Counted from the stretch's first letter, positions 18,929-40,532 are shown. The stretch: DNA of 54,283 nt from an uncultured Candidatus Saccharibacteria bacterium (GCA_964586365.1 CAZPGI010000001.1:1-54283), one strand, 5' to 3'. Numbers and translations are program-made. The notes: a model not told the origin generated them from the letters alone.

Positions 18929-19015
18929 AATTCTTGCCTCTATTATATTAAATAAAGTCAAGAAAGGCAAAAAGCCTTGAAAAATCAAGGGCTTTAAAGG
19001 CAAGGTGAAAAAGGG

Positions 19016-19110: not shown

Positions 19111-19248
19111 ATGAGAATTACAACTTATAGGCCAAAAAAGAAAAAAAGGAAAACAACCCATGGTTTTATTAAACGCTCTAAAACTGCAAGCGGAAGAAAG
19201 ATTTTGAAGAGAAGAAGAGCTAAAAAAAGAGCAAAGCTTACGGTTTAG
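19111..19248 (+). CDS. rpmH: 50S ribosomal protein L34 (missed by the ORF track, 45 aa)
   Basis: Hand translation gives [45 protein letters not shown]. This matches the L34 pattern (..HGF..R......GRK.L.RRR.KGR..L) and sits upstream of rnpA. Confidence 0.9.
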
Positions 19249-19252
19249 CATA

Positions 19253-19591: not shown

Positions 19592-20294
19592 ATTTTTTTC
19601 TTCCATTTTTAACACTGTCCTTTATCAACCTATATTAAACCTTTTGATTTGGTTTTATGGTCTGGTTGGTAATTTTGGCTTAGCCATTATCATCCTTACT
19701 TTATTAATTAAAGCCCTTCTTAATCCACTTAATAAAAAAGCATTAGAATCTCAAAAAATGATGGCTGAAATGCAGCCAAAAATAAAAGAGATTCAGAATA
19801 AGTTTAAAGATGCCGAAAAACAAGGGCGAGAATTGTTAAAGCTTTATCAGGAAACCAAGTTTAATCCTTTTTCCGGAATTTTTCTTCTCCTTATCCAGTT
19901 GCCTGTTCTTTGGGCTCTTTTCAAGGTTTTTCAAAACGGCTTAAGCTTGGAAATGATAAGCGGTTTAATTTATTCTTTTGTCCCTCTGCCAACAACAATT
20001 AATCCATATTTTTTAGGTATTAATTTGGCCAACCCCAACATTCCTTTGGCTTTAATTACTGCCATTGCTCAATATATTCAGGCCAAAGGAACTACGCCTC
20101 AAGTAAAACGAGAACAAAGCCAAGACCAAATGGAGCAAGTTTCCCAAATGATCCAAAAACAAACCACTTTTTTCATTCCTGCTTTTACTTTTTTTGTTCT
20201 TTTTTCCCTGCCCTCAGCTATTGCTCTTTATTGGGTATTGACTACAATTCTAAGTATTATTCAGCAAAAACAAGTGTTTAATAAAAAAATATGA
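19584..20294 (+). CDS. yidC: Membrane protein insertase YidC (short form)
   Basis: YidC/Oxa1 core pattern (LLIKALLNPL, MQPKIKEIQNKFKD, NPFSG, LYWVLTTILSIIQQ) and synteny. Confidence 0.85.
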   Translation: MFEFFSSIFNTVLYQPILNLLIWFYGLVGNFGLAIIILTLLIKALLNPLNKKALESQKMMAEMQPKIKEIQNKFKDAEKQGRELLKLYQETKFNPFSGIFLLLIQLPVLWALFKVFQNGLSLEMISGLIYSFVPLPTTINPYFLGINLANPNIPLALITAIAQYIQAKGTTPQVKREQSQDQMEQVSQMIQKQTTFFIPAFTFFVLFSLPSAIALYWVLTTILSIIQQKQVFNKKI

Positions 20295-20764
20295 ACGAAA
20301 AAGAACTATTAGAAAAAATAGAGGAAATAATTAAGGAATTTTTTGAACGAGTTGGTTCAGAAGTAGAGATTAAAAAAATATCTTTAAGCCAAATTGACGA
20401 CCGAGAAGTTTTAACAGTTAATTTAAAAACTAAAGAAGCCAATATCTTTATTGGCAAGCAAGGGTTGGTTTTGTCTGACATTCAGTTGCTTTTGAGAAAG
20501 ATTCTTAAAAGAAAAACGAACGAAGAGCTTTTTTTAAATTTAGACATTGACGATTACAAAAAATACAAAGAAGACTATATCCGAGAGCTAGCTCAAAGTA
20601 CTGCTGATGAGGCAGTAAGCCAAAAAGAAAAAAAAGAATTGCCTTTGGCCGCAGCTTTTGATAGAAGAATAGTTTATTTAGAGCTGTCAAAAAGAACTGA
20701 TGTCAAAGTGGAAAGCCAAGGAGAAGGGGAAAACAGAAAAATTATTATTACGCCCTTAAATTAA
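20291..20764 (+). CDS. jag: Jag-like KH/R3H RNA-binding protein
   Basis: Position after yidC. KH-like IGKQGLVLSDIQ and a C-terminal R3H-like region. Confidence 0.6.
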   Translation: MNEKELLEKIEEIIKEFFERVGSEVEIKKISLSQIDDREVLTVNLKTKEANIFIGKQGLVLSDIQLLLRKILKRKTNEELFLNLDIDDYKKYKEDYIRELAQSTADEAVSQKEKKELPLAAAFDRRIVYLELSKRTDVKVESQGEGENRKIIITPLN

Positions 20765-22554
20765 ACATTCTCTTGGCTGTATTTTTTCGCCTCTCTTATC
20801 TTAATTATTTCTTCAGGAGAAGTGGTGATTATTTGGTCTTCGGTGTAAGAAGCAACAATACTAATGGCTACGTGTTTTTGGCCAGCAAAAAAGATACCTT
20901 CTCCTACCGGGCTTTCCAAGAGCAGGTATTTTTCTTGGTCAGTTAGATTAAATGTTTTTTGGACAAGATCAATAGCTGCCGGGCTTTGTTTGAGCAAAAG
21001 TTGAAGAGAAGAGTTGGTAATAATTGGCTTGCCGTATTCTGAACTAATAAAATCAGAAACATCTTGAGTAATAGTAGTTACCCCTAGCCAGTATTTTCTC
21101 GCCCGCTTGCAAATGCCGTAGAGAAAAGAGGCGCCGTCTGCTTCTTTCATCATCCACCAAGCTTCATCAACCACTAGAATTCTTTTTTTCAAGCTTACTC
21201 TAATACTGTTCCAGATATATCTCATAACAATAAACATAGCGATTGGTCTTAAGTCATCTTCCATGTCTCTGATGCCAAAAATAACCAATGATTTATCCAT
21301 GGAGATATTGGAGGGGCTATTAAAGAAAGAAGAAAAAGTGCCTTTAGTATATTTTCTCAGTCTTTCTACTAAAGATTCTGCTCCTTGCATTGTTTCCAAA
21401 ACAGATTCCAAATCAGAAAGAATAGGAATGTTTTCTTTCCATTTTTTAGGGTCAGAATATGGCGTGATGTCTTTAGCAGCATAGGTCTCCATAATTGCTC
21501 TGTCCATAATCGCATCTTCTTCAGGAGTCATTCCGCCAAGCATTATTCTCATTAAACCAACTAAGTTAACAATACTGCTTCTTAGCACATCTTCTGGTGT
21601 TTCGTCTTCTCTAGGTTCAGGTAAATCAAAAGGATTGATATGGCTTTCAGAGCTTAAAGATATTTTAAAAAAAGAACCGCCGACAGCGTCAACCAGCGGT
21701 TTGTATTCATTCTCTGGGTCAATGACAATACAATCTATCCCTAGCATCAGAGACCTAAGCAATTCTAGTTTTATAGCATAAGATTTACCAGACCCTGATT
21801 TAGCAAAAATAACCATATTGGCGTTTTCCAAACTAAAGCGGTCAAAAAGAATTAAAGAGCTATTGTGTTTATTGATACCAAACAGAATTCCTTCATTAGA
21901 ACTTAAATCAAAAGAGATAAAAGGAAATAAGCTGGAAAGCGGGCCAGTGTTTAAAGTATTATGGATTTGAAGTAAATCCATGCCGTAAGGAAAACAGGAT
22001 AATAGCCCTTCTTTTTGTTGGAGCAAGGCAGGTTTTATGTAAACTAATCTTGACTCTAAAACTGACCTTAAGTTTGTTTCAATTATTTCCAAGTCTTTTT
22101 TATTATCAGCATAAATAGTGATGTATAAGCCGAACTTAAACATTTTTTCTTGGGCTGTTTGAAGCTTATCTCTTAAATCTTCCAAATCTTGATAAGCGGT
22201 CTCTAGAGCCGGGTCTCTAATTAATCCTTTTTCTTGCCTTTCAATTATTTCTGACTGTACTTCAGTTACGCTTTTTCTTAATTGTCTTAAGATGGTTCCA
22301 GTTTCAATGGGGTGAAAGAAAAAAGATAAATCAAAAGGAGCGTCCATGTTGATAATCGGAGCTAACCAGCCCATGGTTAAATAGCGGGGATAGGAAAAGA
22401 CAAAGTATGTTTTGGAAAATTTTTCTTCAATCCTGACATAGTTTTGGTTAATTTCAATAGCCGGTGGGGCAACAATGTCCTTAGCACCAGTAACTTCTTT
22501 CTCAAACAATTTTTCTTGTTCTATTTTTTTGTTTTCTTTTTTAAATAAAGCCAT
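20761..22554 (-). CDS. VirB4-family T4SS ATPase, main (C-terminal) part
   Basis: Walker A AKSGSGKSY, Walker B ILVVDEAWWMM, followed by the TQDVSDF motif. The N-terminal region APPAIEINQNYVRIEE...YPRYLTMGWL resembles Gram-positive VirB4 homologues (Tn916 Orf16/TcpF/PrgJ type). Confidence 0.8.
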   Translation of the reverse strand: MALFKKENKKIEQEKLFEKEVTGAKDIVAPPAIEINQNYVRIEEKFSKTYFVFSYPRYLTMGWLAPIINMDAPFDLSFFFHPIETGTILRQLRKSVTEVQSEIIERQEKGLIRDPALETAYQDLEDLRDKLQTAQEKMFKFGLYITIYADNKKDLEIIETNLRSVLESRLVYIKPALLQQKEGLLSCFPYGMDLLQIHNTLNTGPLSSLFPFISFDLSSNEGILFGINKHNSSLILFDRFSLENANMVIFAKSGSGKSYAIKLELLRSLMLGIDCIVIDPENEYKPLVDAVGGSFFKISLSSESHINPFDLPEPREDETPEDVLRSSIVNLVGLMRIMLGGMTPEEDAIMDRAIMETYAAKDITPYSDPKKWKENIPILSDLESVLETMQGAESLVERLRKYTKGTFSSFFNSPSNISMDKSLVIFGIRDMEDDLRPIAMFIVMRYIWNSIRVSLKKRILVVDEAWWMMKEADGASFLYGICKRARKYWLGVTTITQDVSDFISSEYGKPIITNSSLQLLLKQSPAAIDLVQKTFNLTDQEKYLLLESPVGEGIFFAGQKHVAISIVASYTEDQIITTSPEEIIKIREAKKYSQENV

Positions 22555-22556
22555 AT

Positions 22557-23192
22557 TTAAGTAATTATTTCTGGGGGCAATTCAGGATAATATCCTAATT
22601 CAGCTTGTTTAGGGTGGTGAAGGCTCCATAAAAGCTCAATTAGTTCTTCTGTCCCCAAAGCTACTGATTTTAAACCACACCTTCTTAATCCAACAGAAAC
22701 ATATTCCATTCTTTGCCAGAGCTGGTATTTGCCTGTTTGGAAGCCTTGCTCGGTTAAAGAGCCGGCTGTTTTTTCCTTTCCTCCCCCGCCAGGCAAACTA
22801 GCCAATTCCACTAAAGGATAATAAGGGACAGCAATGTAGAAGTTTTTATTCATAATTGAGCCCCCAGCCACTAATTCTTCAATAAACCTTCTATAATCAG
22901 CGGTTTGGATTTTAAGCAATTCATTTTTTTGTTCGTCTTCCAGTTTTTTAATTTTTTCTATGTAGCCAGTGATATTGACTTTTCTAGAGTTGACGATTAT
23001 TTGACAGGAAAAATCCAAAGAATTAAGAAAATTTTGGAAGTTGAAGATAATAGCTTCTTGTTCTTCTCCTGACTTTAAAGCAAAGTTAATGGAAGATACC
23101 AAAAGAACGCCTTTTAAGGACTTATCTTTCATTATCATTACTCCTTCCCGGATTTGGTCAATTGGTATGAATTGTTGAGATGGTGTTGGCAT
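22557..23192 (-). CDS. VirB4 N-terminal-domain-like protein (separate ORF)
   Basis: IPIDQIREGVMIMKDKSLKGVLLVSSINFALKSGEEQEAIIFNFQNFLNSLDFSCQIIV matches the extreme N-terminal pattern of Gram-positive VirB4 proteins. It ends 2 nt before the next ORF, in a different frame. Confidence 0.55.
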   Translation of the reverse strand: MPTPSQQFIPIDQIREGVMIMKDKSLKGVLLVSSINFALKSGEEQEAIIFNFQNFLNSLDFSCQIIVNSRKVNITGYIEKIKKLEDEQKNELLKIQTADYRRFIEELVAGGSIMNKNFYIAVPYYPLVELASLPGGGGKEKTAGSLTEQGFQTGKYQLWQRMEYVSVGLRRCGLKSVALGTEELIELLWSLHHPKQAELGYYPELPPEIIT

Positions 23193-23611
23193 TATTTTTC
23201 AAAAAACATTTTTTTATTCAAAGCTTCAATTTTTCCGCTCGGTTTAAGTTTTAAGTTTGTTTTCTCTTCTTTTTCTTTCTCCGGCGCTTTCTTAGATGTT
23301 TTAACAGGAAGAAAAACCGGCGATTCTTTTCTGTCCCATTTGTAAACTTTGCTATTAGCAGTGTAATTGAGAAAGTTTTTGGAGACATCAACGATGCTTA
23401 ATCCTTCTACTTTCCAAAAGGCTAGAGCTAAAGCTAGCCCGAAAATAGTGCCGCAGACAATAATGTATAAAAAGAAATTACTTTTTCCTAAGCTGAAATA
23501 CAAGAAAAAACAAACTCCTAAAGCTAGACCAACATAAATACTTTGTTTGGTAGTAAAAGGACCAAGGATTTTAGGGTCATGTTCTATGAATTGAGGAATT
23601 TGAAATTGCAT
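23192..23611 (-). CDS. PrgI-family (VirB3-like) small membrane protein
   Basis: MQFQIPQFIEHDPKILGPFTTKQSIYVGLALG followed by two TM helices, which is the PrgI family pattern. Its stop overlaps the start of the next ORF by 1 nt. Confidence 0.6.
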   Translation of the reverse strand: MQFQIPQFIEHDPKILGPFTTKQSIYVGLALGVCFFLYFSLGKSNFFLYIIVCGTIFGLALALAFWKVEGLSIVDVSKNFLNYTANSKVYKWDRKESPVFLPVKTSKKAPEKEKEEKTNLKLKPSGKIEALNKKMFFEK

Positions 23612-23613
23612 AA

Positions 23614-24042
23614 TTATAAAGATTCTCGGTAGGGGTCTTGAGGATAACTTTCCCCTCCCTTTATTATATCATTTTTTTTAATATTTGCATCTTTTTCGTT
23701 AGAAATGTGTCCTTCTTTTTCTCCGTGAAGTTTATCTAAAGAAACTCTGGCGTCTTTAAAAATAGCAAGATTAATTTCTCTGGCTAATTTGTTGGCGGTT
23801 TGTTCATCAACGTTCAGTTCTAATTCCAGGGTAATGGGAAATTCTTTTAAAGGAAGTAAGCCCATTAGAACGCGGCCAGTATATTTGGCAACAAGAGAAG
23901 TTTTTTCTTCGTCTAGCCCCATTTCCGCACAAATCTTTTCCAATGTCTGATTGTTTTTTTCTGAAAACACGGCCTCTTTCAAGTCCTCGGGTAGTTTTTC
24001 ATAAGTTTTCCAAAAGAATTCTTTATCGTATTCTTGTTCCAT
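23614..24042 (-). CDS. Hypothetical acidic protein, first gene of the prgI-virB4 unit
   Basis: Intact ORF spaced 2 nt from the downstream gene. No family recognised. Confidence 0.4.
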   Translation of the reverse strand: MEQEYDKEFFWKTYEKLPEDLKEAVFSEKNNQTLEKICAEMGLDEEKTSLVAKYTGRVLMGLLPLKEFPITLELELNVDEQTANKLAREINLAIFKDARVSLDKLHGEKEGHISNEKDANIKKNDIIKGGESYPQDPYRESL

Positions 24043-24099
24043 AAACTAAAAGTTAATATATTTTATCATAAAAGGCAGGAAAGGTTCAAGTGCTTGCTA

Positions 24100-24128
24100 T
24101 TGACAAATTACTCAAATTAGTTTATTAT
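24100..24128 (+). promoter_or_regulatory. Sigma70-like promoter of the SPFH gene
   Basis: TTGACA (24100-24105), 17-nt spacer, TATTAT (24123-24128). A strong RBS aaaggagag lies just before the ATG at 24183. Confidence 0.45.
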
Positions 24129-24182
24129 TAAATTGCCTTTAATAAAAGGCATGCAACTTAAAAATTAAAAAAGGAGAGAAAA

Positions 24183-25550
24183 ATGACAGAAAAGACAAAA
24201 AAGAATGTTGAGCAGAGCAAGAATGATGAAACAGGAGTCTTCATTAATGGACTGCTTCTTATTATCGGCCCTCTTGTGGCTGTAAGCATAGCGTACAGAC
24301 TATGGCCATGGATTCCGTGGATATCTTATATCCCAGCGTGGCCCTTCTATTTATGGACAGTTCTGTTCATTCCCCTTGTCCTCTACTTCTATTGGGCGAA
24401 AAATAATGTAATTGGTTATTTTATTGAAGAAGGATATGCAATTGTTTTCGCTTGGAGTGGCAAAGCATTCGCTGGCGCTGACCTACAATATGGCGATGCT
24501 TACTTTGATTCTAATTGGAACATAGTATTTCCTGGAGAAAAGCAAGAAGAAAAAGGTTGGGACATAATAAGGTGGATAAAAAAGCCGAAAAAGTTCTTTG
24601 GTATGGGACTATATGCTTGGCCATTTAAAAGAGTGTATAAGTACAAGATGACCTGGTCAAAGAGAGATGAAGGCGGAAATCGCGTCTCTAAAACAGAAGA
24701 GCTCTCCAGGGTTTTACTCAAGCCCTATGTCTACGATATTGCTTATCAGGGCATGGAAGATAAAGACCGTATGCCTTTGAACATTGAACTGGCGACAGAG
24801 ATTCAAGTTAGAAATCCGTATAAAGCCCTTTTTGGCATAGAGAGGTGGTATAGGGCTTTGTTAAACCTAGCCGAAGGAGAGATAAGAAGATATATTGGCC
24901 AGAATCTTTATTTAGACCTAGTTAGCCGTAAAGAGGCTGGAGAAAAAGGAATTGTTAAAACGGTTGACCAAGAAATTGTTGAAAGAATACGCACAGACCT
25001 TAATGTCTTTGAAGAAAAGTTTGGGGTGAAGGTAAATAGAATAAAATTAATGCAGATTTTTCCTTCCCGAAAAGAGGACATAGAGGCAACGCTTTTAGAG
25101 ATGAGAGCTAAGCGAGAAAGAGAGGCGATAGAGACCAAGGCTAAGGCAGAGGCCTATAGGGCTGGCCAGGAACTTGCCGGAATTGTTTTAGAGGCCCTCA
25201 AGGTCTCTACAGGAAAAAGCATTGAAGTTTTGCAAGAAGAATACAGAAAAGATCCAAAGCTTTTTGAGCAGACCTACGAAACTTCTCTAAAAGAAGCTTA
25301 TGATTTTGCCAAGAGGAGGCTTGGTTTTACTCAAAAAGGAAGATTTGAGTTCATAACTTCTTGCAAAGAAGGAGAAGGCAGTAGTGATACCACCAGCAGG
25401 CTAGCAGAAATTGTCGCTGGAGTTGAGATGGCTAGAAACCAACTTCAGCTTCAAGGAAAGTCAGGAGAAGAGAACAAGAAGAAAGATAAAAGAGAGGGAG
25501 CAAGAGAAACATTAGAGAAAATTAAAAAAGAGCTCGGACACAAAGAATAG
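24183..25550 (+). CDS. SPFH/band-7 (prohibitin-like) domain membrane protein
   Basis: N-terminal TM helices, then an SPFH-like core (LNIELATEIQVRNPYKALF..., EGEIRRYIG, FGVKVNRIKLMQI), then an A/E/K-rich coiled coil. Confidence 0.55.
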   Translation: MTEKTKKNVEQSKNDETGVFINGLLLIIGPLVAVSIAYRLWPWIPWISYIPAWPFYLWTVLFIPLVLYFYWAKNNVIGYFIEEGYAIVFAWSGKAFAGADLQYGDAYFDSNWNIVFPGEKQEEKGWDIIRWIKKPKKFFGMGLYAWPFKRVYKYKMTWSKRDEGGNRVSKTEELSRVLLKPYVYDIAYQGMEDKDRMPLNIELATEIQVRNPYKALFGIERWYRALLNLAEGEIRRYIGQNLYLDLVSRKEAGEKGIVKTVDQEIVERIRTDLNVFEEKFGVKVNRIKLMQIFPSRKEDIEATLLEMRAKREREAIETKAKAEAYRAGQELAGIVLEALKVSTGKSIEVLQEEYRKDPKLFEQTYETSLKEAYDFAKRRLGFTQKGRFEFITSCKEGEGSSDTTSRLAEIVAGVEMARNQLQLQGKSGEENKKKDKREGARETLEKIKKELGHKE

Positions 25551-25565
25551 TCCGAGTATTTTTTT
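25533..25565. terminator. Bidirectional intrinsic terminator between convergent genes
   Basis: ctcggac...gtccgag 7-bp stem (25533-25556). It is flanked by an A-run upstream and a T-run downstream. Confidence 0.5.
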
Positions 25566-26037
25566 ACATTAATTCTTGAGCTATTCCTTTTTGTTTTTCT
25601 TTTTGTTCCTCGGGAAAGTATTCTTCTTCCTCTTCAATGTTCTCTTCTGTCATATCTTTTATCACATTTTCATTGTCTGCAATCCTTTTAGCAATTTCTT
25701 CAATTATCTTTTGATTTATATTTAGCTTCCCCAAAGATAATTTTAATTCTTTTTCCAGTTCATCAAAAGTTATTTCTTTGTTTATAAGTTTTTCTACTAC
25801 CTTGGCAATTGCTATGGAAGCTGATATTTCTTCTAAAGGTTTTTTCAGGGCAAGATATTCTTTTATCTTTTTGCTTTTTAAAAATTTTACTACTCTTTTT
25901 TTTTCCGGCGTTGTGGCTGACTCTAACCACTCCTTCAAAAGAGGATCGTTCTCCACGAGATTCTTTTCTAGGTCATATTGGACCACTAATTCTTCTATGA
26001 AATTTAATGTTTCTGTTGATGGTTTAATCTTCTTCAT
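25564..26037 (-). CDS. Hypothetical acidic/coiled-coil protein
   Basis: Intact ORF that overlaps the upstream VirB6-like gene by 14 nt, suggesting co-translation. No family recognised. Confidence 0.4.
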   Translation of the reverse strand: MKKIKPSTETLNFIEELVVQYDLEKNLVENDPLLKEWLESATTPEKKRVVKFLKSKKIKEYLALKKPLEEISASIAIAKVVEKLINKEITFDELEKELKLSLGKLNINQKIIEEIAKRIADNENVIKDMTEENIEEEEEYFPEEQKEKQKGIAQELM

Positions 26038-28093
26038 GTATGGTTCTGTAAATAATATCTAATTTTTTGGCTAATTGTTCATTATTTTTTCGTGCCTCTA
26101 TTTTTTCTTGATCACTGCCTTCTTTCATTAATTTTTCCAGCCTGGTTAGTTCAGCGTCAGCCTGAGCTATCCATTTATTGTTATCTTTGAAGGATTGTTT
26201 TTGTTCGTTATTCATGTTTTTGAATAAGTTCTCAATTTGTTTTTGGTCAAGAGGTTTAACGTGTTTTTCAAAATCAAAATCTTTGAAAGCTGAAGCGTCT
26301 TGAAGGGTGTTTCTTTGTTCTTGGGTTCCTCTTTCATCAATGTATTTTAAATCTTTGTCAGATAAGTTTGCCCTTACAACAAGATTAGTTAGAGATATCG
26401 GCCTTATCTTCTCCTGTTTTTCTTTGGGACTCATGCCAGCCATAATGTCTGCTGTTGTTTTTTTACCGCCAGTTAATTCTGCAGCTTTGTCAGGCACGAA
26501 TTTAGCCAAGTCTTTAACGTTGAAACCATATTGTTCAGCTTCTTTAGTGTTTTTTGTTAAAGCTTCTATTTCTTTATCATTAAGTTCTTTTTTCTCCATC
26601 AATACCTGCGTGGCCTGGTATTTCTTTATCTTTCCTTCCGGGGTGTAGGCAACAGAATTGGCTATTTCTCTAACTTGGTCGGTCTTTAATTTTTCCATCG
26701 GTGCTTTGAATTCTTCAAATTGTTTTTTTCTCATAGTTTCTGCTGTGCCAGGTTTTTCAATGGTTAGAACTTCTTTGGCTCTAGTTGCCCATTGCTTGAC
26801 CTCTTCTTGTTCTAAAGGAGCCTTTACTACATTCATTAATCCGCCTACTGTTGTTATTTTTTCTTTTTCATTAACCTTGGCGTTTAAGGCTTCAGTAGCC
26901 CCAGTTTTTACCCCTCCATACAATCCTCCGGCTAAAGAATAAGCAGCCCTTGTCGCCCGCCCTTCGTCTTTCTTTAAATCAGCTTGAGTTTTAGCTCCTG
27001 TGTAAGCTCCTGTAACAAATCCTGTTCCAGCAGCAGCTAGTCTACCAGCAGCTTGTCTTCCGTAACCAGTTGCCATTTCTCCTATTTGGCCGCCAGAAGA
27101 AATAGTAATAAAAAAGCCGATGATAAGAAAAGCAAGGGGAATTATCAAAGTAAAAAGACTGCCTACTGCCCCTAAGCTTCCTGTTGGTGTGGAGACAAAT
27201 GAACCGCTGAACATTATTTTCTCTGATAAATAGATAAAAAAAGCAGCTGGAATGCCAATAACTACCCATTGTAAGAAAGTTTTCCACCAATCATCCCAAT
27301 AGGTGATACTTGGAAAAACAGCTTTAATATATTTACTTTGAGGAAGAACCTTGCTGGCAAAAGCAATCGGAGAAACTATAACTAAGAACCATAAAACAAT
27401 ATGTCTAGCTATGAATAAAAAAGCATAAAGAAAGTATATTACAGCAGAAAGAATAGCGAACAAAAGATAAGCTATTGGAACCACAGGATTACTCAAGGAA
27501 AAAGAATTAGAAATTAGCCCTTCAGTAATTGTTTCTGTTAAATTATTGCTAATATCTCCAGTTAAGAACAAGCCCATAATTTTATCAGCAAAATCAATAA
27601 TTATGCCGCAAAATACTGGAGTGAAATTAATTAAAATAGCTATAAGGACAAAGTTAATTAAAGCTTTTTTTGCTTTGGTTTCTTGATAGCCGACAATAAT
27701 ACTGATAGCAATGGCTACTAAGCCAAAAATTAAAACAACATTAGCCAAATCTCTAGTCGTTCCCCATCCGCTCTGAACAATTGGATTGTTTTGGATAACT
27801 GTGCCCATAAAGTCAGGACTAATCACCCAATTTAGAAGTGATTGGCCAATGCTTAATATGCCCTGAGCTATAGAAGAAGCAAGGAGGGTGAGGGCAGCTA
27901 TAATTACAGAACCAAGACTAAGAGATGATTCGTTGTTTGCTCCTTCTCCCCCTGCTCCCATGTCGCGCAGCATATCAGACAGTTTGCTAACTAGGTTAAT
28001 GTAGGTTATAACTTGGGCTTTTGCCAAAATAGGGATAAGAACAATTATTAAGCAAAAGGAAATAATAAGTATTTTTTTAGTTGAAGATTTCAT
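26024..28093 (-). CDS. Polytopic membrane protein, VirB6/TrbL-like by architecture and context
   Basis: Signal peptide, then an approximately 8-helix hydrophobic core, then a roughly 330-aa K/E-rich hydrophilic tail. This is the usual layout of T4SS channel subunits. The call is contextual. Confidence 0.45.
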   Translation of the reverse strand: MKSSTKKILIISFCLIIVLIPILAKAQVITYINLVSKLSDMLRDMGAGGEGANNESSLSLGSVIIAALTLLASSIAQGILSIGQSLLNWVISPDFMGTVIQNNPIVQSGWGTTRDLANVVLIFGLVAIAISIIVGYQETKAKKALINFVLIAILINFTPVFCGIIIDFADKIMGLFLTGDISNNLTETITEGLISNSFSLSNPVVPIAYLLFAILSAVIYFLYAFLFIARHIVLWFLVIVSPIAFASKVLPQSKYIKAVFPSITYWDDWWKTFLQWVVIGIPAAFFIYLSEKIMFSGSFVSTPTGSLGAVGSLFTLIIPLAFLIIGFFITISSGGQIGEMATGYGRQAAGRLAAAGTGFVTGAYTGAKTQADLKKDEGRATRAAYSLAGGLYGGVKTGATEALNAKVNEKEKITTVGGLMNVVKAPLEQEEVKQWATRAKEVLTIEKPGTAETMRKKQFEEFKAPMEKLKTDQVREIANSVAYTPEGKIKKYQATQVLMEKKELNDKEIEALTKNTKEAEQYGFNVKDLAKFVPDKAAELTGGKKTTADIMAGMSPKEKQEKIRPISLTNLVVRANLSDKDLKYIDERGTQEQRNTLQDASAFKDFDFEKHVKPLDQKQIENLFKNMNNEQKQSFKDNNKWIAQADAELTRLEKLMKEGSDQEKIEARKNNEQLAKKLDIIYRTIHEED

Positions 28094-28115
28094 AGTTTGC
28101 CCTTATTATTTTTTG

Positions 28116-28134
28116 TGGTATAATTATTATACCA
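28116..28134. promoter_or_regulatory. Palindromic pair of divergent extended -10 promoters
   Basis: tggtataat-t-attatacca is a perfect 9-bp inverted repeat. Each arm reads TGnTATAAT toward one of the two divergent operons (starts at 28093 and 28162). Confidence 0.5.
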
Positions 28135-28161
28135 TTATTTTATTTTACATGCAATATATTT

Positions 28162-28464
28162 ATGTCAAAGAGTCTTGACCTTAGTCCAGAAACAGTGCTT
28201 ATGCTTTCTTGGGCTGGATTGATAGATTTAATAGAAATAATTCTTCTTTGTTTTGCTTTAGATGATGTTGGTATTCTTGACCTTATCAGCACAATTACAA
28301 TCGGAGGCTGGATGTTTTTAAGAGAAGGGAAAACAGTTAATTTTAAAGCGCAAAGAAAAAGGCTGGTACGTTTTTTAGCAGGAATGGGGATAGAGATTGT
28401 CCCTTATCTTGGCGCTTTGCCCATGGTCACTGTTATTACTTATTTAACCTTAAAAGAAGATTAA
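28162..28464 (+). CDS. Small membrane protein (100 aa)
   Basis: Three hydrophobic segments. It ends 1 nt before the next gene. No family recognised. Confidence 0.45.
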   Translation: MSKSLDLSPETVLMLSWAGLIDLIEIILLCFALDDVGILDLISTITIGGWMFLREGKTVNFKAQRKRLVRFLAGMGIEIVPYLGALPMVTVITYLTLKED

Positions 28465-28465
28465 A

Positions 28466-31400
28466 ATGAATAAAAACAAAATTCTTTTTATTTTTCTCCT
28501 TTTCCTTATTCCTTTTTTGGCTTTAGCCCTAGAAACAGAGTATCCAGTCATAGGCGGAACCCAGCCCACTCAAAGTACTTCTCCAGCAGAGTTTATAAAA
28601 TACATCTTCAATGTAGTAATTATTGTCGGTATCATTGCCGCTGTTTTTGTGATGACCTTTCAAGGAGTTAATATTCTTTTAGCCAGAGGAGATGTAGCTT
28701 TAGTTTCTACTGCTAAAGAAAAGATTAAAAGCGTTTTTATCGGCTTGATTATCCTTTTAGGCTCTTATCTTATTCTTACTGCTATTAGCCCTGATTTAGC
28801 GGTAATAGACATTAAGCCATTGGAGACTATTCATAAAATAGTAAAAGGACCAGAGCCAGAAGAAGAGACCATTCCCCTTTCTGAATTTGAAGAAATTCCT
28901 TTAGGCACTATCTTAGAAAGCATCTTAGCCGCTAACTCGTCTGAAAGAATCTATAACGATGTTACTGAAGAACTTTGTTATGCTTACGACGAAAACGGAG
29001 ATACTATTGACCGTAATGGTGATAAAAAAATAGACGAGCAAGACCTGTTGAAAGGAGTGGATATGTATTATTGTTTGTCAGAGTTAAATAAAGCTTTAAT
29101 AAAAAAGATAAAAGATATTAATGGAGGCAATTATTTATGTAATACTCCATCAAAAACCGGACCAATTGAAGAAATGAAGGAAGCGATTTCCAGTGGTTGT
29201 AGCTGTCAGTCTTGCGATGTTTGGAAACCGAGATTCTATTGTCCTGGAGAGGAATGCTATCAATGTAAAACCTATAGTTGTGGCGAGTGCAGTACTTGTT
29301 GTAAGGACCATTGTTCTTGCTGCGGCAGGGCCTATTATTCTCCTGATGCAGGCTGCCAAGACCTTAATGATAAAAGCAGAGACCCTTGTGGAGCAACAAG
29401 AGATAAAATAGACTGTGCCAGAAATGAAATTAAGCTTAGGGTTAATGGTACGGGCTATAATGTCCCTGGAGCGACTGAAGATAACTGCGATTTTACGAAA
29501 TACTTTAAAGAAAATGAGTATAAGTTTTTAACTCTTACTATAGCTAAGCAAAGACTCGATTCTTTTAAAACATACTTCCAAAACCATTTAACTGATTTAG
29601 AAAAAGCAGAAACAATGATGAAGTCTCCTTATGGAGAAAGATTGTCTTTAGCTGAGTTTCAAGCTATTCAAGCTGGTGATGCTTATAAAAAAACCGTAGC
29701 CAATTCTTTTAAGAACACTAATAGTAGTTATTCTTACAATCCAGTCAAATACTGCCGAGAGTTTAATTGCACTGGTTACAAAAACGGAGACTCAAAGAAT
29801 CTTTGCGTGTCTGGGGAAAGAGTCAGTTTGACAGAGGCTTTAATGGAAAAGGAAAAATTGATAGATCCTTTATACGATAAATTACCGAAACTCATTGATA
29901 AAAGAATATGCAAGGTAGACAAGGAAAAGGACGTAGAAAGCTATTATTACGATGGGGACGGAGCTACTTTTTATTTTCAATCAGGATACAGCACTAGTCA
30001 ATCTGGCATTCAAGAAAAATGCGCCATTAATTCAAAGATTGAAAAAGAAATGATGAAGGGGCTGATTCCTGTTGGAGAAACAGTTGATGCCACAGAGAAG
30101 TTTGCTCAAGATGTTATTAACATATTAAGCCAGATATCAGCAGAAACCCAGAAAACAATTGAAAAAGCCATTGAATTAAGCGCTTTGCCAGAAAAATGCG
30201 ATTGTTCCTGGGGATGTTCTAATCATTCTGATTGCCGTTGTGTTCCTAGTTCAGAAAGCTGCACTTCTTGCTCTTGCAGTTCTTGTTTGGCTTGCCGTGC
30301 TAACTCTCAATCATTGTGTATCTGTTGTCAAGATTGTGAAGAAGTGGAAGTGATTGATGAAAATATTCCTAGCCCAGAAGATGACATGATTAAGAATTTT
30401 GGTTCTTGTCCATCTTGTCCAAGCATTGTTTCCACAGGCAATGCCAATGAATACTGGACCTATTGTCCTTGCAGCGGAACCTTGCTCATCCCTAATATTG
30501 CTTTAATTACTAATCCTAATTCTAGGTTTTGTTATTTAGGCGAAGACCTGGGTTCTTATTGTGCTATTCATTTTCAAGAAGCGAATTGCCAAGCAGAGTT
30601 TAAAAAACTACCTCGAGTTTGTATTGTTTCCACAATTAATGCTCCTAAATTTGTAAATTATACTATTGAAAGTTGCGAAACAGTTGTTCAAGAGCCGATT
30701 TCAGACGCTATTCTTTGCGGTGGCGGACAAAAAGCTTATTACACCCAAAAAAGCATTCTTAAGCTTAAACCCAAGGGAGAAATAGTTACTATTTGTGAAG
30801 GAGAGCTGCCTGTGGACCAAGAGTTGGTTAATGAAATTAATAAATATTGTAATACAACTTGTGCCCATGAACCAAACTGCCAGCCAGGAAGCTTTCATTG
30901 GGTAAGCGCTAACGAATTTGTCATGAGAGAAGTTTTTTGCAAAGGTCCTGGTTCTCCTAAGGATCCTCAAGGCCTTATTAAAAGAGACTCTGCCCCTTAT
31001 TACAGTTCTCTAAAGGTTGCTTTGCCCGTAGGATATGTGGTGGAAAGCGTTACGGCTATTCCTTTGAGCGATTCAAGGGTCCCTTCTTCTTATCGAAGCT
31101 CAATGGTTCCTGTTCAATATTATCATATTGGAACGTGTTCTACAGAATATACTGATGAAGGACCAATAAAACATTGCGTAGAGGCTGGGTATAATACCTA
31201 TCATTTTATTGATGATGGTTATGCTTTATTGTATAAAATCAGAAATACAAACAGAATAAAGAGAGGAGAAAGCGATAGTCAGGCTGAATATGTTTGTCCG
31301 GTTAATGATATAAAAGACAGGCAGTGTAGGATATTTAAATATAGCGATAGCGATGCTATTGATCCTAAATATCCAGAAAATATTAATACTGACTATAACT

Positions 31401-31858
31401 GCCGAGACGAAAACTCTTCTGGCGCTGGCTATCTTCAGAAAATAGAGCTTTTGAATAACAGGTTGGAAGGCTTGGTTCAAGGCAAGAATCTGAGGAGCGA
31501 TGATGTTAACCGCTGGACTCTTTTAGAAAAGTTATCTTTAATTAGAACTAAACTAGAGTCCTGTATCCAGGGCTATAGTTTTCCCAACAAAGGTGATTTA
31601 ACTAAACAGAGAATATTTTCCTGCCAAGAAGGAATTGAAGATATGATTTTACGCTCCTTAGTTATTCTGCCAGACTTTCCTTATCCCCCTTCTAAAACCT
31701 ATTGGAATTGCTATCCTTTTAATAGCAGTTCTTTAACTGACGAGCAGAAGATATCTTGCTATGCCAATAAAGACGCTGAGGGAACTGCAGCTAGTCCTAA
31801 ATGTCAAAGATTTATTAGCGGCTTATTAGACAATTATTATTGTTGTCAAGGAGAATAA
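28466..31858 (+). CDS. T4SS-pilin-domain (VirB2/TrbC-like) N-terminus fused to a ~950-aa cysteine-rich ectodomain
   Basis: Signal peptide, ALETEYP, TM1 (IIVGIIAAVFVMTF), an ARGD loop, AKEKIKS, then TM2 (FIGLIILLGSYLIL) give the pilin layout. After that come about 66 Cys (hand count), including dense CxxC/CC clusters. Confidence 0.7.
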   Translation: MNKNKILFIFLLFLIPFLALALETEYPVIGGTQPTQSTSPAEFIKYIFNVVIIVGIIAAVFVMTFQGVNILLARGDVALVSTAKEKIKSVFIGLIILLGSYLILTAISPDLAVIDIKPLETIHKIVKGPEPEEETIPLSEFEEIPLGTILESILAANSSERIYNDVTEELCYAYDENGDTIDRNGDKKIDEQDLLKGVDMYYCLSELNKALIKKIKDINGGNYLCNTPSKTGPIEEMKEAISSGCSCQSCDVWKPRFYCPGEECYQCKTYSCGECSTCCKDHCSCCGRAYYSPDAGCQDLNDKSRDPCGATRDKIDCARNEIKLRVNGTGYNVPGATEDNCDFTKYFKENEYKFLTLTIAKQRLDSFKTYFQNHLTDLEKAETMMKSPYGERLSLAEFQAIQAGDAYKKTVANSFKNTNSSYSYNPVKYCREFNCTGYKNGDSKNLCVSGERVSLTEALMEKEKLIDPLYDKLPKLIDKRICKVDKEKDVESYYYDGDGATFYFQSGYSTSQSGIQEKCAINSKIEKEMMKGLIPVGETVDATEKFAQDVINILSQISAETQKTIEKAIELSALPEKCDCSWGCSNHSDCRCVPSSESCTSCSCSSCLACRANSQSLCICCQDCEEVEVIDENIPSPEDDMIKNFGSCPSCPSIVSTGNANEYWTYCPCSGTLLIPNIALITNPNSRFCYLGEDLGSYCAIHFQEANCQAEFKKLPRVCIVSTINAPKFVNYTIESCETVVQEPISDAILCGGGQKAYYTQKSILKLKPKGEIVTICEGELPVDQELVNEINKYCNTTCAHEPNCQPGSFHWVSANEFVMREVFCKGPGSPKDPQGLIKRDSAPYYSSLKVALPVGYVVESVTAIPLSDSRVPSSYRSSMVPVQYYHIGTCSTEYTDEGPIKHCVEAGYNTYHFIDDGYALLYKIRNTNRIKRGESDSQAEYVCPVNDIKDRQCRIFKYSDSDAIDPKYPENINTDYNCRDENSSGAGYLQKIELLNNRLEGLVQGKNLRSDDVNRWTLLEKLSLIRTKLESCIQGYSFPNKGDLTKQRIFSCQEGIEDMILRSLVILPDFPYPPSKTYWNCYPFNSSSLTDEQKISCYANKDAEGTAASPKCQRFISGLLDNYYCCQGE

Positions 31859-31878
31859 ATAATTTTAATAAATTGAAT

Positions 31879-33210
31879 ATGAATAAGAAAAAACTATTAC
31901 TTTCCCTTCTCGCTATTTCTCTTGTTTTGGTTTCTAATGCTTATGCCCTAGAAACTCAATATCCTGAGATCATGGGTAAGAGCATTACTGAAGAAACTAC
32001 ACCTGCCGGCTATGTTGTTTACTTTTTCTACTTAGCTATAGCCCTAGGAAGCGTTTTGGTTTTTATTGTTTTGGTTTTGGCTGGTGTTGACTTTATGACT
32101 GCTGGCGGAGAGCCGGCGAAGATAAGCGAAGCCAAGAAAAAAGTGACAAGCGCGGTTATTGGCTTAGTGGTTCTTTTAAGCTCTTTTCTCATTTTAAATA
32201 GCATTAACCCAGATTTATTAAATATAGAGCTGGAGCAATTAGAATGTCCTTCAGGTATAGGAATTGTAAAAAGAACTACTCTTGGAAAGATAGCCAATGA
32301 TTGTATAAGCTCAGATACGAAAGATATAGAGGGAGAGGTTCTTGAAACCAAAGGATGGAACTTTTCTGGCTGTTCTATTAAGGAAGTATATTTATGCAAT
32401 CAGCCAGATTTTAAAGGAACATGCATTAAGGTTTCTGATGAAAAGAGTCAAGATTATACTTGTCATCCTGATTATCAGTTTACTAGTGGTGTTAGTTTAA
32501 AAGGAGTTAAATCAATAAAATTCGTTTGGCGTTCTCCGGGATTGTATTTATATGATAGTATTGGAATGCAGGCGCAGGATATAACTAAAAACCCAGAATA
32601 TCTGGTTAGTAGTGTCAAAAATATGAACAGCTTAGGGTTTGACAATGCTGCTCAGTCCTCTCAATTTATTTGGCCGGCAACAGAAACAGCAAACGAAGAC
32701 GATACTTATTATGGCGCTGTTTTCTTTGATAGTATTAATTATTCAGGCAGATGCAGCCTAGAAATAATGAATAGAGAAGACCTTGGGGAAGCTAATTCTA
32801 TTGGCAGAAACACTTTGTCTTCAGTTATTCTTTTTACTCAAAATCAAGTATCTGAATCTAAGGACCTGGGAGACATTATTTTTTACAACAATATCGATTG
32901 CGGGCAGAGTACAGCCGAAGAAGTTAAAACCTGTAAATTGGACATAAATAATTTTGTAACTGCGGGAAAAATTAAAAATGCCTGTCCTAATTTTAAAGAC
33001 GGAGATTATGTTCTTTCTTTTAGCATTAGTGGGCCGGGAGGATTGGTTTTAAAAGGCAACCAGAATAATCTTTGCGAGTATTTTGATGTTGGCAGCTTGA
33101 CTTCAGGAAACTGTTATTCAAGCTTAAAAACAAAATCAACAATTTATGTTCAGGGACCGAGCGGGGTTAAGCCAGAATCATACATAATTTTTCCAGTAGG
33201 CAATAAATAA
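31879..33210 (+). CDS. T4SS-pilin-domain N-terminus fused to a beta-gamma-crystallin-like ectodomain (paralogue 1)
   Basis: ALETQYP and two TM helices (AGGEPAKISEAKKKV between them). The C-terminal part carries Greek-key-like FFDSINYSGRC...NTLSSVILF and IIFYNNIDCG. ATG at 31879. Confidence 0.7.
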   Translation: MNKKKLLLSLLAISLVLVSNAYALETQYPEIMGKSITEETTPAGYVVYFFYLAIALGSVLVFIVLVLAGVDFMTAGGEPAKISEAKKKVTSAVIGLVVLLSSFLILNSINPDLLNIELEQLECPSGIGIVKRTTLGKIANDCISSDTKDIEGEVLETKGWNFSGCSIKEVYLCNQPDFKGTCIKVSDEKSQDYTCHPDYQFTSGVSLKGVKSIKFVWRSPGLYLYDSIGMQAQDITKNPEYLVSSVKNMNSLGFDNAAQSSQFIWPATETANEDDTYYGAVFFDSINYSGRCSLEIMNREDLGEANSIGRNTLSSVILFTQNQVSESKDLGDIIFYNNIDCGQSTAEEVKTCKLDINNFVTAGKIKNACPNFKDGDYVLSFSISGPGGLVLKGNQNNLCEYFDVGSLTSGNCYSSLKTKSTIYVQGPSGVKPESYIIFPVGNK

Positions 33211-33212
33211 AT

Positions 33213-34439
33213 ATGAAACAAGCAAACATTCTTGCCATAATCCTATTTTTATCAGTACCCCTTTTTGCCTTAGCCGATTACCCAACTATTAATGGAAGAA
33301 CCATAACCAGTGATTCTACTTTTTCTGATTATGTTGTTTATTATTTTTCTTTGGCTTTAATGATTGGAATTATAGCAGCAGTAGTTATTTTGATAGCTGC
33401 GGGTATTAAGTTTCTGTTTTCTCAAGGAGATACTTCCAAAAGAAGTGACGCAAAAAGAATGATTACTGGAGCTTTTATTGGTTTGATAGTCCTTTTTGGT
33501 TCATATGCTCTTTTAAACTCTTTGAACCCTTCAGCTACCGAGCCAATTGTTGAGCCAGAGCCAGTTGCTTTTGACGGCATTTATTTAATTAAAGAGAATG
33601 GAAGCAAGGTTTTGGTTTCTCAGGATATTCCAGAGACTAGTCAAAACTTTACTGGCATTGAATGGATTTCCAGCGCAGAAGACTTGCCTGCAATTTATAT
33701 TTATGCTGAAAAATACTTTAAAGGCGTGCCAAAAGAAATAACAAACGGAACTTCGGTTTCTATTCCTAAGGGTTCATCAATTTCTTTTTTATGGAAAACA
33801 GCCGGTATTTATCTTTATGACAAGACCAATTATCAACTGGGAAACAAAAGCGCTCCCCTACCCATTAAGTTTAGTCAAGCTTTTTTGGGAGGAAGTTCTT
33901 TTGACAATACAACGCAATCAATTAAAATTAATCAGCCTAGCGATGGTTCAACCTTAGGCGCTATTCTTTTTTCTGAAGATGATTATCGCGGCACTTGTTC
34001 TTGGATTTTAGGAGAAATTTCTGATTTAAGTCAGTCAAGAGGTGAAGAAAATAATCCACCTATAGGTAATAATAATTTATCTTCAATTATTGTTTTAAAT
34101 TTGGCTTCTGGCTCGCCTACAGTTACTTTTTACAATCGAGCTGATTGTCAATATATCCAAAAAGATCCAAGAAACAAAAAATGTGATGTTTCTACAATTA
34201 ATAAAACAAGCACCTTCAAAGAATCCTGTCCTGATTTTACAGGAGACGTTTTATCTTTTTCTTTAAATGAAAATACAGGCGTTCTTTTGAAAACAGAAAA
34301 TGGCCAGTGTCAATTTTTCAAAAGACAAAATAGTCCTCAAGAATGTCAAAGTTTAATTAAATATGGCTATGTTTACAATCCAGACATTAAGAAAGCCATT
34401 AAACCCTATTCTTTTACTATATTTTCTTTGACAAAATAG
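33213..34439 (+). CDS. T4SS-pilin-domain N-terminus fused to a beta-gamma-crystallin-like ectodomain (paralogue 2)
   Basis: LADYP and two TM helices (SQGDTSKRSDAKRMI between them). Greek-key-like YAEKYFKG...SSISF, LFSEDDYRGTC...NNNLSSIIVL and VTFYNRADC. Confidence 0.7.
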   Translation: MKQANILAIILFLSVPLFALADYPTINGRTITSDSTFSDYVVYYFSLALMIGIIAAVVILIAAGIKFLFSQGDTSKRSDAKRMITGAFIGLIVLFGSYALLNSLNPSATEPIVEPEPVAFDGIYLIKENGSKVLVSQDIPETSQNFTGIEWISSAEDLPAIYIYAEKYFKGVPKEITNGTSVSIPKGSSISFLWKTAGIYLYDKTNYQLGNKSAPLPIKFSQAFLGGSSFDNTTQSIKINQPSDGSTLGAILFSEDDYRGTCSWILGEISDLSQSRGEENNPPIGNNNLSSIIVLNLASGSPTVTFYNRADCQYIQKDPRNKKCDVSTINKTSTFKESCPDFTGDVLSFSLNENTGVLLKTENGQCQFFKRQNSPQECQSLIKYGYVYNPDIKKAIKPYSFTIFSLTK

Positions 34440-35167
34440 GAAGAAAGCTTTAACCAATCATTAATGTTTAATTCTTGAGCCCTACTTTTAGGATTGATGC
34501 CAGATTTATTAAGAACATATTCCGTCCTTTCTTTTTTTATCTTTAAACCAGAAGAAAGATTGTTTATTAATTGCTTTCTTGGCTGGGAAAAACTGGTTTT
34601 AACTATTTTAAAGAAAAAATCATCCTTTTTTCTTTTTAAAGGAATCATTTTAAGAATAGCGCTATCAACCTTAGGTTTAGGCCAAAAGCAATTTTTAGAA
34701 ACAAAGCCTTTAATAGTTGGTTTGGCATAATAATTAACGCTTACGGCCAAAAGATTCATTTTTCCTGGCTGAGCGCAGATTCTTTGAGCCACTTCTTTTT
34801 GCACCAAAAGAACAATTTCTTGAGGCTTGTTCTCCATTTCCAGCAGTTTTCTGATTAAAAAAGAAGTAAGGTAATAAGGGATATTGGCAACAACCTTGTA
34901 TTCCCCCTTTATCTCCGGCAAATCTTTCAAAGCATCGCCAGTAATAATTTCTACATTCTCTATTTTTAAAAGAGAGGCTAGGCGTTCATCTTTCTCAATG
35001 GCAATAATTTTTTTCGCTAATTTAGCCAATTCTTTGGTTAAAGCTCCTTTCCCTGGTCCAATTTCCAAAACAATATCATTTTTATTGATATCAGCTGTTT
35101 TGATTATCTTTTGGACAATGTTTTTATCAATTAAAAAGTTCTGACCTAGAGATTTTTTAGGTTTCAT
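34406..35167 (-). CDS. rsmA: 16S rRNA (adenine1518/1519-N6)-dimethyltransferase
   Basis: LGQNFL, the SAM motif EIGPGKGALT, and NIPYY. Confidence 0.9.
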   Translation of the reverse strand: MKPKKSLGQNFLIDKNIVQKIIKTADINKNDIVLEIGPGKGALTKELAKLAKKIIAIEKDERLASLLKIENVEIITGDALKDLPEIKGEYKVVANIPYYLTSFLIRKLLEMENKPQEIVLLVQKEVAQRICAQPGKMNLLAVSVNYYAKPTIKGFVSKNCFWPKPKVDSAILKMIPLKRKKDDFFFKIVKTSFSQPRKQLINNLSSGLKIKKERTEYVLNKSGINPKSRAQELNINDWLKLSSYFVKENIVKE

Positions 35168-35198
35168 TTCTCCTGTGGCTTACTTGTGGATAATGAGC

Positions 35199-40504: not shown

Positions 40505-40532
40505 ATTTTTATTAATAATTATTTTTCTCTTG

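Follow-up and report, generated by a model that had tools for sequence, protein, structure and literature searches.

The 54,283-nt stretch of DNA analysed here (GCA_964586365.1 CAZPGI010000001.1:1-54283; hereafter the window) carries, between positions 20761 and 34439, a relaxase-less type IV secretion/pilus gene cluster beside dnaA in an ultra-small Paceibacteria (candidate phyla radiation, CPR) genome. Judged by sequence comparison, this type IV secretion system (T4SS) locus belongs to the chromosome, is inherited vertically and descends from monoderm conjugation machinery; it is not an integrative conjugative element (ICE), since its gene order is kept in about 80 species and plasmid VirB4 proteins are only 29-35% identical. 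It is probably a Patescibacteria-clade T4SS, an MPF-FATA conjugation derivative without DNA processing that acts as a VirB4-driven pilus or surface-display machine for host contact. Such systems, their composition and their origin-proximal position were already described between 2020 and 2025; the locus is a further example and not a discovery, and it adds nothing new on the existence or composition of the Patescibacteria T4SS. The additions here are a predicted VirB6 (TrwI) fold for a 689-amino-acid (aa) protein, pilin fusions with a predicted crystallin fold, and long-extension pilin modules as the apparent norm of the class. The Patescibacteria form a large share of bacterial diversity and apparently live on other cells; the T4SS is almost universal among them, and the sole species tested cannot do without it.

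Components and inheritance of the locus

The locus is bounded on the origin side by jag/KhpB (20291-20764, plus strand; Pfam R3H and KH) and on the far side by ksgA/rsmA (34406-35167, minus strand; Pfam RrnaAD 8.7e-58). Beyond jag lies an origin-type gene block of dnaN (16239-17375, minus), dnaA (17564-19003, minus), rpmH (19112-19249, plus), rnpA (19253-19591, plus) and yidC (19584-20294, plus). The jag and VirB4 genes are convergent, and the TTAA at 20761-20764 is common to both stop codons, which agrees with the preliminary description of a locus that abuts rpmH-rnpA-yidC-jag with a 4-nt stop overlap. The ksgA gene and the last pilin gene also overlap convergently, by 34 nt. Four transcription units lie between jag and ksgA, beginning with the one convergent with jag. 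Unit (a) is on the minus strand (24042 to 20761) and encodes proteins of 142, 139, 211 and 597 aa with a spacing of -1 to 2 nt. Unit (b), on the plus strand (24183-25550), encodes a single 455-aa protein. Unit (c) is on the minus strand (28093 to 25564) and encodes a 689-aa protein and an overlapping 157-aa protein, while unit (d), on the plus strand (28162 to 34439), encodes proteins of 100, 1130, 456 and 408 aa.

The position beside the replication origin is supported by the gene context (dnaA, dnaN, rpmH) and not by DnaA boxes, which are at chance level in the window with no enrichment; the origin is placed by context alone. The sole perfect DnaA box of the 54 kb (TTATCCACA) is at 35185-35193, in the spacer between ksgA and a LysM-M23 gene and not beside dnaA. 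One-mismatch boxes occur at 17431 in the dnaN-dnaA spacer and at 19015 in the dnaA-rpmH spacer. Promoter and terminator scans also gave counts at chance level, and a few good -35/-10 matches in divergent spacers (24100-24128, 28097-24, 24089-24060) are not used as evidence.

The VirB4 ATPase is encoded by two open reading frames (ORFs). The 597-aa protein (20761-22554, minus) holds the middle and C-terminal part and matches NCBIfam conju_CD1110 at 1.5e-109 (367 bits against a cutoff of 325), over profile positions 173-733 of 752. It also matches Pfam P-loop_TraG (2.6e-27), AAA_10 and DUF87 and, in the PDB, the C-terminal domain of Thermoanaerobacter VirB4 (4ag5, 2.1e-41) and weakly R388 TrwK. 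The ATPase motifs read from the translation are intact (Walker A AKSGSGKS, Walker B ILVVDE). The 211-aa protein (22557-23192, minus) is the VirB4 N-terminal domain as a gene of its own and is TrsD-like. It covers positions 2-106 of the CD1110 profile and 105-215 of VirB4_plasma (5.4e-10), matches TrsD (1.7e-4), and has the mycoplasma ICE VirB4 as its best match among the profiles. Its precomputed Pfam record is TraC-like, unlike our direct Pfam hmmscan of the whole protein and its halves, which returned no TraC-like match at E up to 10. A frameshifted VirB4 pseudogene was considered and rejected. The two parts are distinct ORFs in all 76 related loci where this could be determined, usually 1-5 nt apart; therefore, the split is an ancestral two-gene design and no frameshift.

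The 139-aa protein (23192-23611, minus) is a small PrgI/VirB3-like membrane protein with two predicted transmembrane (TM) helices, and reaches the Pfam PrgI gathering score (4.2e-06; 27.7 bits against 27). The first gene of the unit (23614-24042, minus) encodes a conserved cytoplasmic 142-aa protein with no match in Pfam, NCBIfam or PDB sequence searches. It occupies the same position in 27 related loci and has 23 homologue clusters, all without names. One homologue is in Ca. Microsyncoccus archaeolyticus, which ties the lineage to cultured parasites of methanogenic archaea.

The 689-aa protein (26024-28093, minus) is accepted, with a caveat, as an extended VirB6/TrbL-like polytopic membrane protein with a predicted TrwI fold. 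The precomputed record of exactly this protein carries Pfam TrbL_3. Of the 120 homologues listed for it, about half have TrbL_3, TrbL/VirB6 is found as well in three, and a single one bears the name 'type IV secretion system protein'. An AlphaFold model built with 40 homologues as input (predicted local distance difference test, pLDDT, 77) has an N-terminal helical membrane domain, a Gly/Ala-rich linker (335-430) and a confidently predicted, Lys/Glu-rich helical C-terminal domain of 260 aa (430-689). In a Foldseek search of 350,542 PDB chains, the top four matches of this model were R388 TrwI/VirB6 chains, with a probability of 0.98-1.0, a target template-modelling (TM) score of 0.39-0.50 and E-values of 0.1-0.3. 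The VirB6-like family profile gave only chance matches to PDB sequences.

The remaining genes of these units are less conserved. The 455-aa gene (24183-25550, plus) encodes an SPFH/stomatin-like membrane protein, of which residues 177-335 match PDB stomatin domains (2rpb 7e-06, 3bk6 4.6e-04, QmcA 5e-03) and weakly HflK. This gene stands between the PrgI-VirB4 and VirB6 units, inserted in the opposite orientation; it is found in eight related loci, which belong to the closest relatives only, and is probably accessory. The Lys/Glu-rich 157-aa gene (25564-26037, minus) shares 14 nt with the end of the VirB6-like gene and is present in the four closest loci only. The 100-aa gene (28162-28464, plus) opens the pilin unit, encodes a small membrane protein with hydrophobic segments, and is kept directly upstream of the large pilin fusion in nine related, close loci. 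Neither the 157-aa nor the 100-aa protein has a family match in the Pfam and NCBIfam scans.

The locus was compared across relatives found by scanning one genome per GTDB species, of which there were at least 551; 80 were kept, and with two source contigs they made up 82 loci for tblastn. All 80 are Patescibacteria metagenome-assembled genomes with VirB4 60-91% identical, against at most 35% for plasmid homologues. Names among them include Paceibacterota, Parcubacteria, Minisyncoccales and Nealson-, Nomura- or Campbellbacteria, and some were binned as 'Saccharibacteria' by automated pipelines. An identical VirB4 protein is also encoded by metagenome contigs, and their gene order matches the one seen here. 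The nearest plasmid-borne VirB4 proteins, at 29-35% identity, come from Actinobacteria and Firmicutes, which are monoderm hosts.

In the tblastn set, VirB4N was found in 82/82 loci, PrgI in 79/82 (directly upstream of VirB4N) and the VirB6-like gene in 62/82, together with yidC in 66, dnaA in 57 and ksgA in 33. Most often the genes run ksgA, VirB6, PrgI, VirB4N, VirB4C, jag, yidC, (rnpA), dnaA, with dnaN beyond, and ksgA is a conserved boundary of the locus. In compact related loci, LysM-M23 and dksA lie just past ksgA. The position of the pilin genes varies; they are upstream of VirB6 here and in close relatives, and between VirB4 and jag in more distant ones. The order from ksgA to jag/dnaA is thus conserved in about 80 Paceibacteria species. 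The GC content of the window is low and even (0.31-0.38), with no anomaly at the locus and values of 0.35-0.37 throughout when compared for a shift in composition.

Essentially every ORF of at least 95 aa in the window (about 50) was scanned against Pfam, and none belongs to a relaxase, coupling protein, VirB11 or integrase/recombinase family. A PilB/GspE-like ATPase at 8798-10099 was tried as a VirB11 candidate and rejected (428-431 bits for PilB/GspE against 55 bits for VirB11). It is the sole T2SSE-family ATPase in the window and belongs to a type IV pilus or type II secretion machinery. This 433-aa protein is without the long N-terminal region of PilB, and neither a family match nor a type IV pilin signature is seen in the two ORFs upstream of it (7090-7626, a membrane protein, and 7691-8794). 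No direct repeats flank the T4SS locus. An Rfam scan of the window returned five tRNAs and nothing else; two of these flank the fourth pilin gene and none bounds the locus, the nearest being 6 kb away. Relaxase, type IV coupling protein (T4CP), integrase, att repeats, a tRNA boundary and a composition shift, which are features of conjugative elements, are all missing within the 54 kb, and instead of a patchy distribution the locus has a fixed position in about 80 species.

The preliminary description had proposed most of these components and stands on nearly all of them. The VirB4, PrgI and T4SS_pilin families were recovered by Pfam from the ORFs of the locus; the two VirB4 ORFs cover complementary parts of the CD1110 profile. 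The VirB6/TrbL-like call is backed by the precomputed TrbL_3/TrbL matches and the TrwI top structure matches, and was not reproduced by our own hmmscan. The claimed absence of a relaxase, VirD4/TcpA, VirB11 and integrase in the 54 kb was borne out by the Pfam scan. The statement that there are no tRNA or repeat boundaries holds for flanking repeats and for the edges of the locus, while the five tRNA genes do exist. The view of a chromosomal, core-embedded apparatus rather than a conjugation module agrees with the synteny in about 80 species, the uniform composition and the lack of DNA-processing and integration genes in the window.

Pilin modules and their extensions

Pfam T4SS_pilin is above threshold in the 456-, 408- and 130-aa proteins, and an in-house profile built from the modules finds exactly four in the window, the number claimed before (three in the locus and one at 40606-40998). 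The largest (28466-31858, plus; 1130 aa) has a pilin module at about residues 1-125, followed by a 1000-aa extension with 66 cysteines that fall in two CxxC-rich clusters. Its module is below the Pfam cutoff (9e-04), and is recognised by BLASTP to the 456-aa pilin (2.6e-22) and by the in-house hidden Markov model (1.5e-28). A PDB sequence search with this protein gave only weak matches (best E 0.09).

The 456-aa protein (31840-33210, plus; T4SS_pilin 2.4e-07, above cutoff) joins a pilin module to a beta-rich C-terminal domain. The mechanical start, TTG 31840, overlaps the preceding gene, and the gene call of the source contig gives 443 aa; the true start is probably ATG 31879, based on that gene call and the signal peptide. 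The 408-aa protein (33213-34439, plus; T4SS_pilin 1.7e-06) is its paralogue, with 31% identity over the full length, and has a pilin module, a short linker and predicted beta/gamma-crystallin-fold domains. An AlphaFold model of the 408-aa protein (pLDDT 82.7) begins with a signal peptide and two long TM helices, which a short disordered Pro/Glu linker joins to an all-beta region. In Foldseek this region matches gamma/beta-crystallins (E 5.7e-09, target TM 0.74) as well as Myxococcus Protein S and bacterial crystallin domains. The C-terminal regions of the 408- and 456-aa proteins have no Pfam sequence match. The model suggests that both fusions carry beta/gamma-crystallin-fold domains; this fusion family is small (35 clusters).

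The fourth module is a stand-alone VirB2-type pilin with a 130-aa precursor (40606-40998, minus), a candidate major pilin with the best T4SS_pilin score of the four (8.3e-13). It is the sole VirB2-type pilin gene of canonical size and sits exactly between tRNA-Lys (40532-40605) and tRNA-Arg (41039-41112), adjoining rpsO-pnp and 6 kb from the T4SS locus, an unusual setting for a pilin gene. The tRNA and ribosomal-protein setting may be a high-expression context.

The preliminary description regarded pilin fusions as unusual, and this was not upheld in the relatives. There, the module is followed by more than 100 residues in 57 of the 75 pilin-module ORFs near virB4, and by more than 300 in 15. 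An exhaustive phmmer search with the 1130-aa protein returned 3,424 representative clusters, mostly matched via the pilin module. Among the best 150 of these, about 117 align from the N-terminal module, nearly all of those being 200-1,475 aa long, and 26 match only the C-terminal module (998-1130). An N-terminal pilin module with a long, variable C-terminal extension therefore appears from these matches to be the norm near virB4 in Paceibacteria. Residues 998-1130 of the 1130-aa pilin form a module of about 130 aa, which is also the C-terminal end of many otherwise unlike proteins of 125-920 aa. In the paper library searched, no discussion of pilin-crystallin or other pilin-domain fusions was found. 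In cultured Paceibacterales that live as parasites of methanogens, T4SS pilin-domain proteins rank among the unknown genes with the highest expression and have been called adhesion-related (Kuroda et al., PMC10936435).

The pilin modules also match, below threshold, NCBIfam NF045849, the family of the pilin-like conjugal transfer protein Mbov_0395 in mycoplasma ICEs, and VirB4N best matches a mycoplasma ICE VirB4. This hints that VirB2-like pilins may be at home in the MPF-FATA lineage, against an assumption that PMC12102498 discusses. The fusions suggest a testable idea, that the output of the system is a surface structure bearing host-binding domains.

Proposed function

In R388, VirB2, VirB3, VirB4 and VirB6 reportedly form a pilus-assembly platform, according to cryo-electron microscopy work. 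The T4CP, the relaxase and VirB11 are parts for substrate recruitment. Since the platform parts are present here and the recruitment parts are missing, the primary product may be a surface structure of VirB2-type subunits. In the proposed mechanism, Sec-inserted pilins would be pulled out of the membrane by VirB4, acting with bound PrgI and VirB6, and polymerised as a filament or stub on the surface. The 130-aa pilin is a candidate for the bulk subunit because of its best family score, canonical size and tRNA/ribosomal-protein neighbourhood, and the three fusion pilins would enter the structure as minor or tip subunits. Both termini of VirB2 are outside the cell. Since the C terminus faces outward, the beta/gamma-crystallin and Cys-rich domains would be displayed outside as host-cell adhesins, and an opening in the cell wall may be made by the LysM-M23 hydrolase encoded nearby. 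A host-contact or surface apparatus had been suggested before; it fits the gene set (VirB2, VirB3, VirB4 and VirB6 only) and the published data on relatives, and is not new (PMC12102498, PMC10633639, PMC12857230).

Several points weigh against a display machine of this kind. For no Patescibacteria T4SS has a pilus or filament been observed, and the role of these systems has been called 'completely unknown' (PNAS perspective, PMC11665869). A T4CP may lie elsewhere in the genome, as such genes are common in Patescibacteria (PMC12102498), and no VirB5 or VirB8 counterpart was found in the window. The VirB6 call depends on a fold match with a non-significant E-value (0.1-0.3) and on precomputed Pfam; a direct Pfam hmmscan of the 689-aa protein, whole and in halves at E up to 10, gave no TrbL_3. 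Five genes of the locus are without an assigned role. Finally, a filament of subunits with appendages of 300-1000 aa may be sterically impossible, in which case the fusions would be membrane-anchored surface proteins.

A wider form of the display hypothesis is offered tentatively. The Paceibacteria T4SS could be a modular display machine in which a VirB2-type handle carries hundreds of fused extracellular domains that are swapped between lineages to suit hosts, including archaea, while a VirB4/VirB3/VirB6 core builds the host-contact filament, possibly a conduit for host molecules. If this is true, the repertoire of pilin fusions would be a host-range determinant of these epibionts.

The best surviving alternative, although rather unlikely, is that the system is a translocation channel rather than an adhesive filament. 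It would inject effectors or toxins, or take up host nucleotides, lipids or peptides, with the pilus as the conduit. Substrate recruitment would either need no coupling protein (as in Bordetella Ptl and Brucella VirB) or depend on a VirD4-like protein encoded at a distance. The T4SS is essential in Southlakia, which cannot make nucleotides, lipids or amino acids (PMC10633639), and uptake or signal exchange has been proposed (PMC12857230, PMC11665869). Most Patescibacteria genomes do have VirD4-like genes away from virB4, but the t4cp homologue is dispensable in Southlakia while the other T4SS genes are essential (PMC12102498). In the window, the large, confidently folded C-terminal domain of the extended VirB6 could dock substrates and there are lipid-scavenging genes (FakA, DegV, PlsY); however, no candidate effector, chaperone or coupling protein was found among the scanned ORFs. 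Import by a T4SS is known for DNA only. The translocation and pilus readings are not mutually exclusive.

DNA uptake, as by Helicobacter ComB or archaeal Ced, which have VirB2/3/4/6-type parts and no relaxase or coupling protein, is less likely than translocation because of the Southlakia genetics, and is considered improbable. Competence in Southlakia needs type IV pili and ComEC, and deletion of comEC abolishes transformation and leaves the cells viable, whereas the T4SS is essential (PMC10633639, PMC12857230). The component set does parallel ComB2/3/4/6, uptake of DNA has been raised as a possibility (PMC11665869), and T4SS loci of class ABY1 sit with comF, recG and radA (PMC12102498), but no competence genes adjoin the locus here. 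VirB4 also has weak NCBIfam matches to CedB (1.1e-10) and CedD; the CedB match of 41 bits (cutoff 700) is far under the 367 bits for CD1110. An integrated conjugative element or its decaying remnant, with relaxase, T4CP and integrase outside the window or recently lost, is very unlikely: the closest curated families of the VirB4, PrgI and pilin-like proteins are from conjugative elements of Firmicutes and mycoplasma ICEs, and relaxases occur in a minority of the Patescibacteria (109 relaxases, 103 genomes, PMC12102498), but about 80 species, with VirB4 identities as low as 60%, have the insertion point between ksgA and jag/dnaA and the gene order in common, the ATPase motifs are intact, the split-gene structure is conserved, no repeats, adjacent tRNA, integrase or GC shift are seen, and published VirB4 trees show class-specific vertical descent (PMC12102498).

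Neighbouring genes and comparison with known systems

Just past ksgA is a LysM-LysM-M23 peptidoglycan hydrolase gene (35318-36295, plus; Pfam Peptidase_M23 2.3e-26, LysM 9.3e-23), which adjoins ksgA beside the T4SS in divergent relatives too. It is a candidate VirB1-type wall-opening enzyme, or a housekeeping neighbour. The zinc-finger gene that follows (36305-36670) is present as first described, but is DksA/YteA-like and not specifically TraR; since this is its best description, it is no evidence of a conjugative origin. Next is a 470-aa protein (36737-38149) with 26% Glu, 12% Lys, a coiled-coil-like composition and no family match, and its gene overlaps the pnp start by 8 nt. Further along are three paralogues of PlsY, a glycerol-3-phosphate acyltransferase (41113-41781, 41774-42433 and 47262-47861). 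The region 41113-47861 also contains a DegV fusion with a FakA-like kinase, two more genes for DegV and one for a CarS-like CDP-alcohol synthase, and looks like an expanded gene set for the use of exogenous fatty acids.

Four known systems can be compared with the locus. Helicobacter pylori ComB is likewise a chromosomal T4SS with VirB2/3/4/6 homologues and without a relaxase, coupling protein or VirB11. It differs in having VirB7-10 and in working with ComEC; in the one patescibacterium tested genetically, competence relies on type IV pili together with ComEC, and the need for the T4SS can be separated from it. The R388/VirB pilus-biogenesis core (VirB2-VirB6; PDB 7o3v, 8rtd) shares the VirB2, 3, 4 and 6 types, and its TrwI/VirB6 is the best match of the 689-aa model, while TrwK is a weak match of VirB4. 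In contrast to R388, the VirB5 tip, the outer-membrane core (VirB7/9/10), VirB8, VirB11 and VirD4 are missing here, VirB4 is split in two, and VirB6 has the additional 260-aa C-terminal domain.

The monoderm MPF-FATA conjugative systems (pCF10 Prg/Pcf, the CTn2 CD1110 family and mycoplasma ICE Mbov_0395-0397) are alike in a VirB4 that passes CD1110, in PrgI, in a VirB6-type protein and in a pilin-like family of mycoplasma ICEs that the modules weakly match. The window is, however, without a relaxase, T4CP, VirB8/PrgL, PrgK-type VirB1 or the adhesin PrgB, and the locus is chromosomal and apparently vertical, with VirB2-type pilins that are generally missing in Gram-positive systems.

The closest comparison is with the Patescibacteria-clade T4SS. 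VirB4 was found in 2,417 of 3,035 Patescibacteria genomes, as a monophyletic clade nested in MPF-FATA with class-specific vertical descent (Quinonero-Coronel et al. 2025, PMC12102498). In that survey, TrsD, the homologue of the VirB4 N terminus, was the most abundant associated component; PrgI/VirB3, VirB6 and VirB2-like pilins (PF04956, PF18895) were near virB4, the pilins in arrays of 2-11 divergent genes; and T4CP/VirD4-like homologues were present in most genomes, mostly far from virB4. M23/LysM hydrolases near virB4 were proposed as possible VirB1 substitutes, and the commonest virB4 neighbours in Paceibacteria were dnaA, dnaN, rnpA, rpmH and ksgA (PMC12102498). A VirB4/B6/B2 region with an array of small Sec-targeted proteins was reported earlier in TM7x (McLean et al. 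2020, PMC7427843). The T4SS genes and pilin array of Southlakia epibionticum (SEML1_0006-0019) are essential for epibiotic growth, with coupling and relaxase proteins lacking (Wang et al. 2023, PMC10633639), and a 2025 review of T4SS nomenclature recognises the Patescibacteria systems as newcomers and speculates on the pilus as a conduit (PMC12857230).

The window has the same set: an MPF-FATA-type VirB4, an adjacent TrsD-like gene, PrgI/VirB3, a VirB6-like protein, a divergent array of PF18895 pilins, no relaxase or T4CP nearby, and an M23/LysM gene close by, in a Paceibacteria host and near dnaA, dnaN, rnpA, rpmH and ksgA. No VirB8-like protein was detected here, in agreement with PMC12102498 for classes other than ABY1. 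The differences are an SPFH-family gene and three small unknown genes interleaved here, and the large C-terminal domains of three of the four pilins (predicted beta/gamma-crystallin fold; 1000-aa Cys-rich), a feature undiscussed in the T4SS papers compared. The locus is a clean, compact Paceibacteria example of this kind of system, with close relatives among cultured methanogen parasites.

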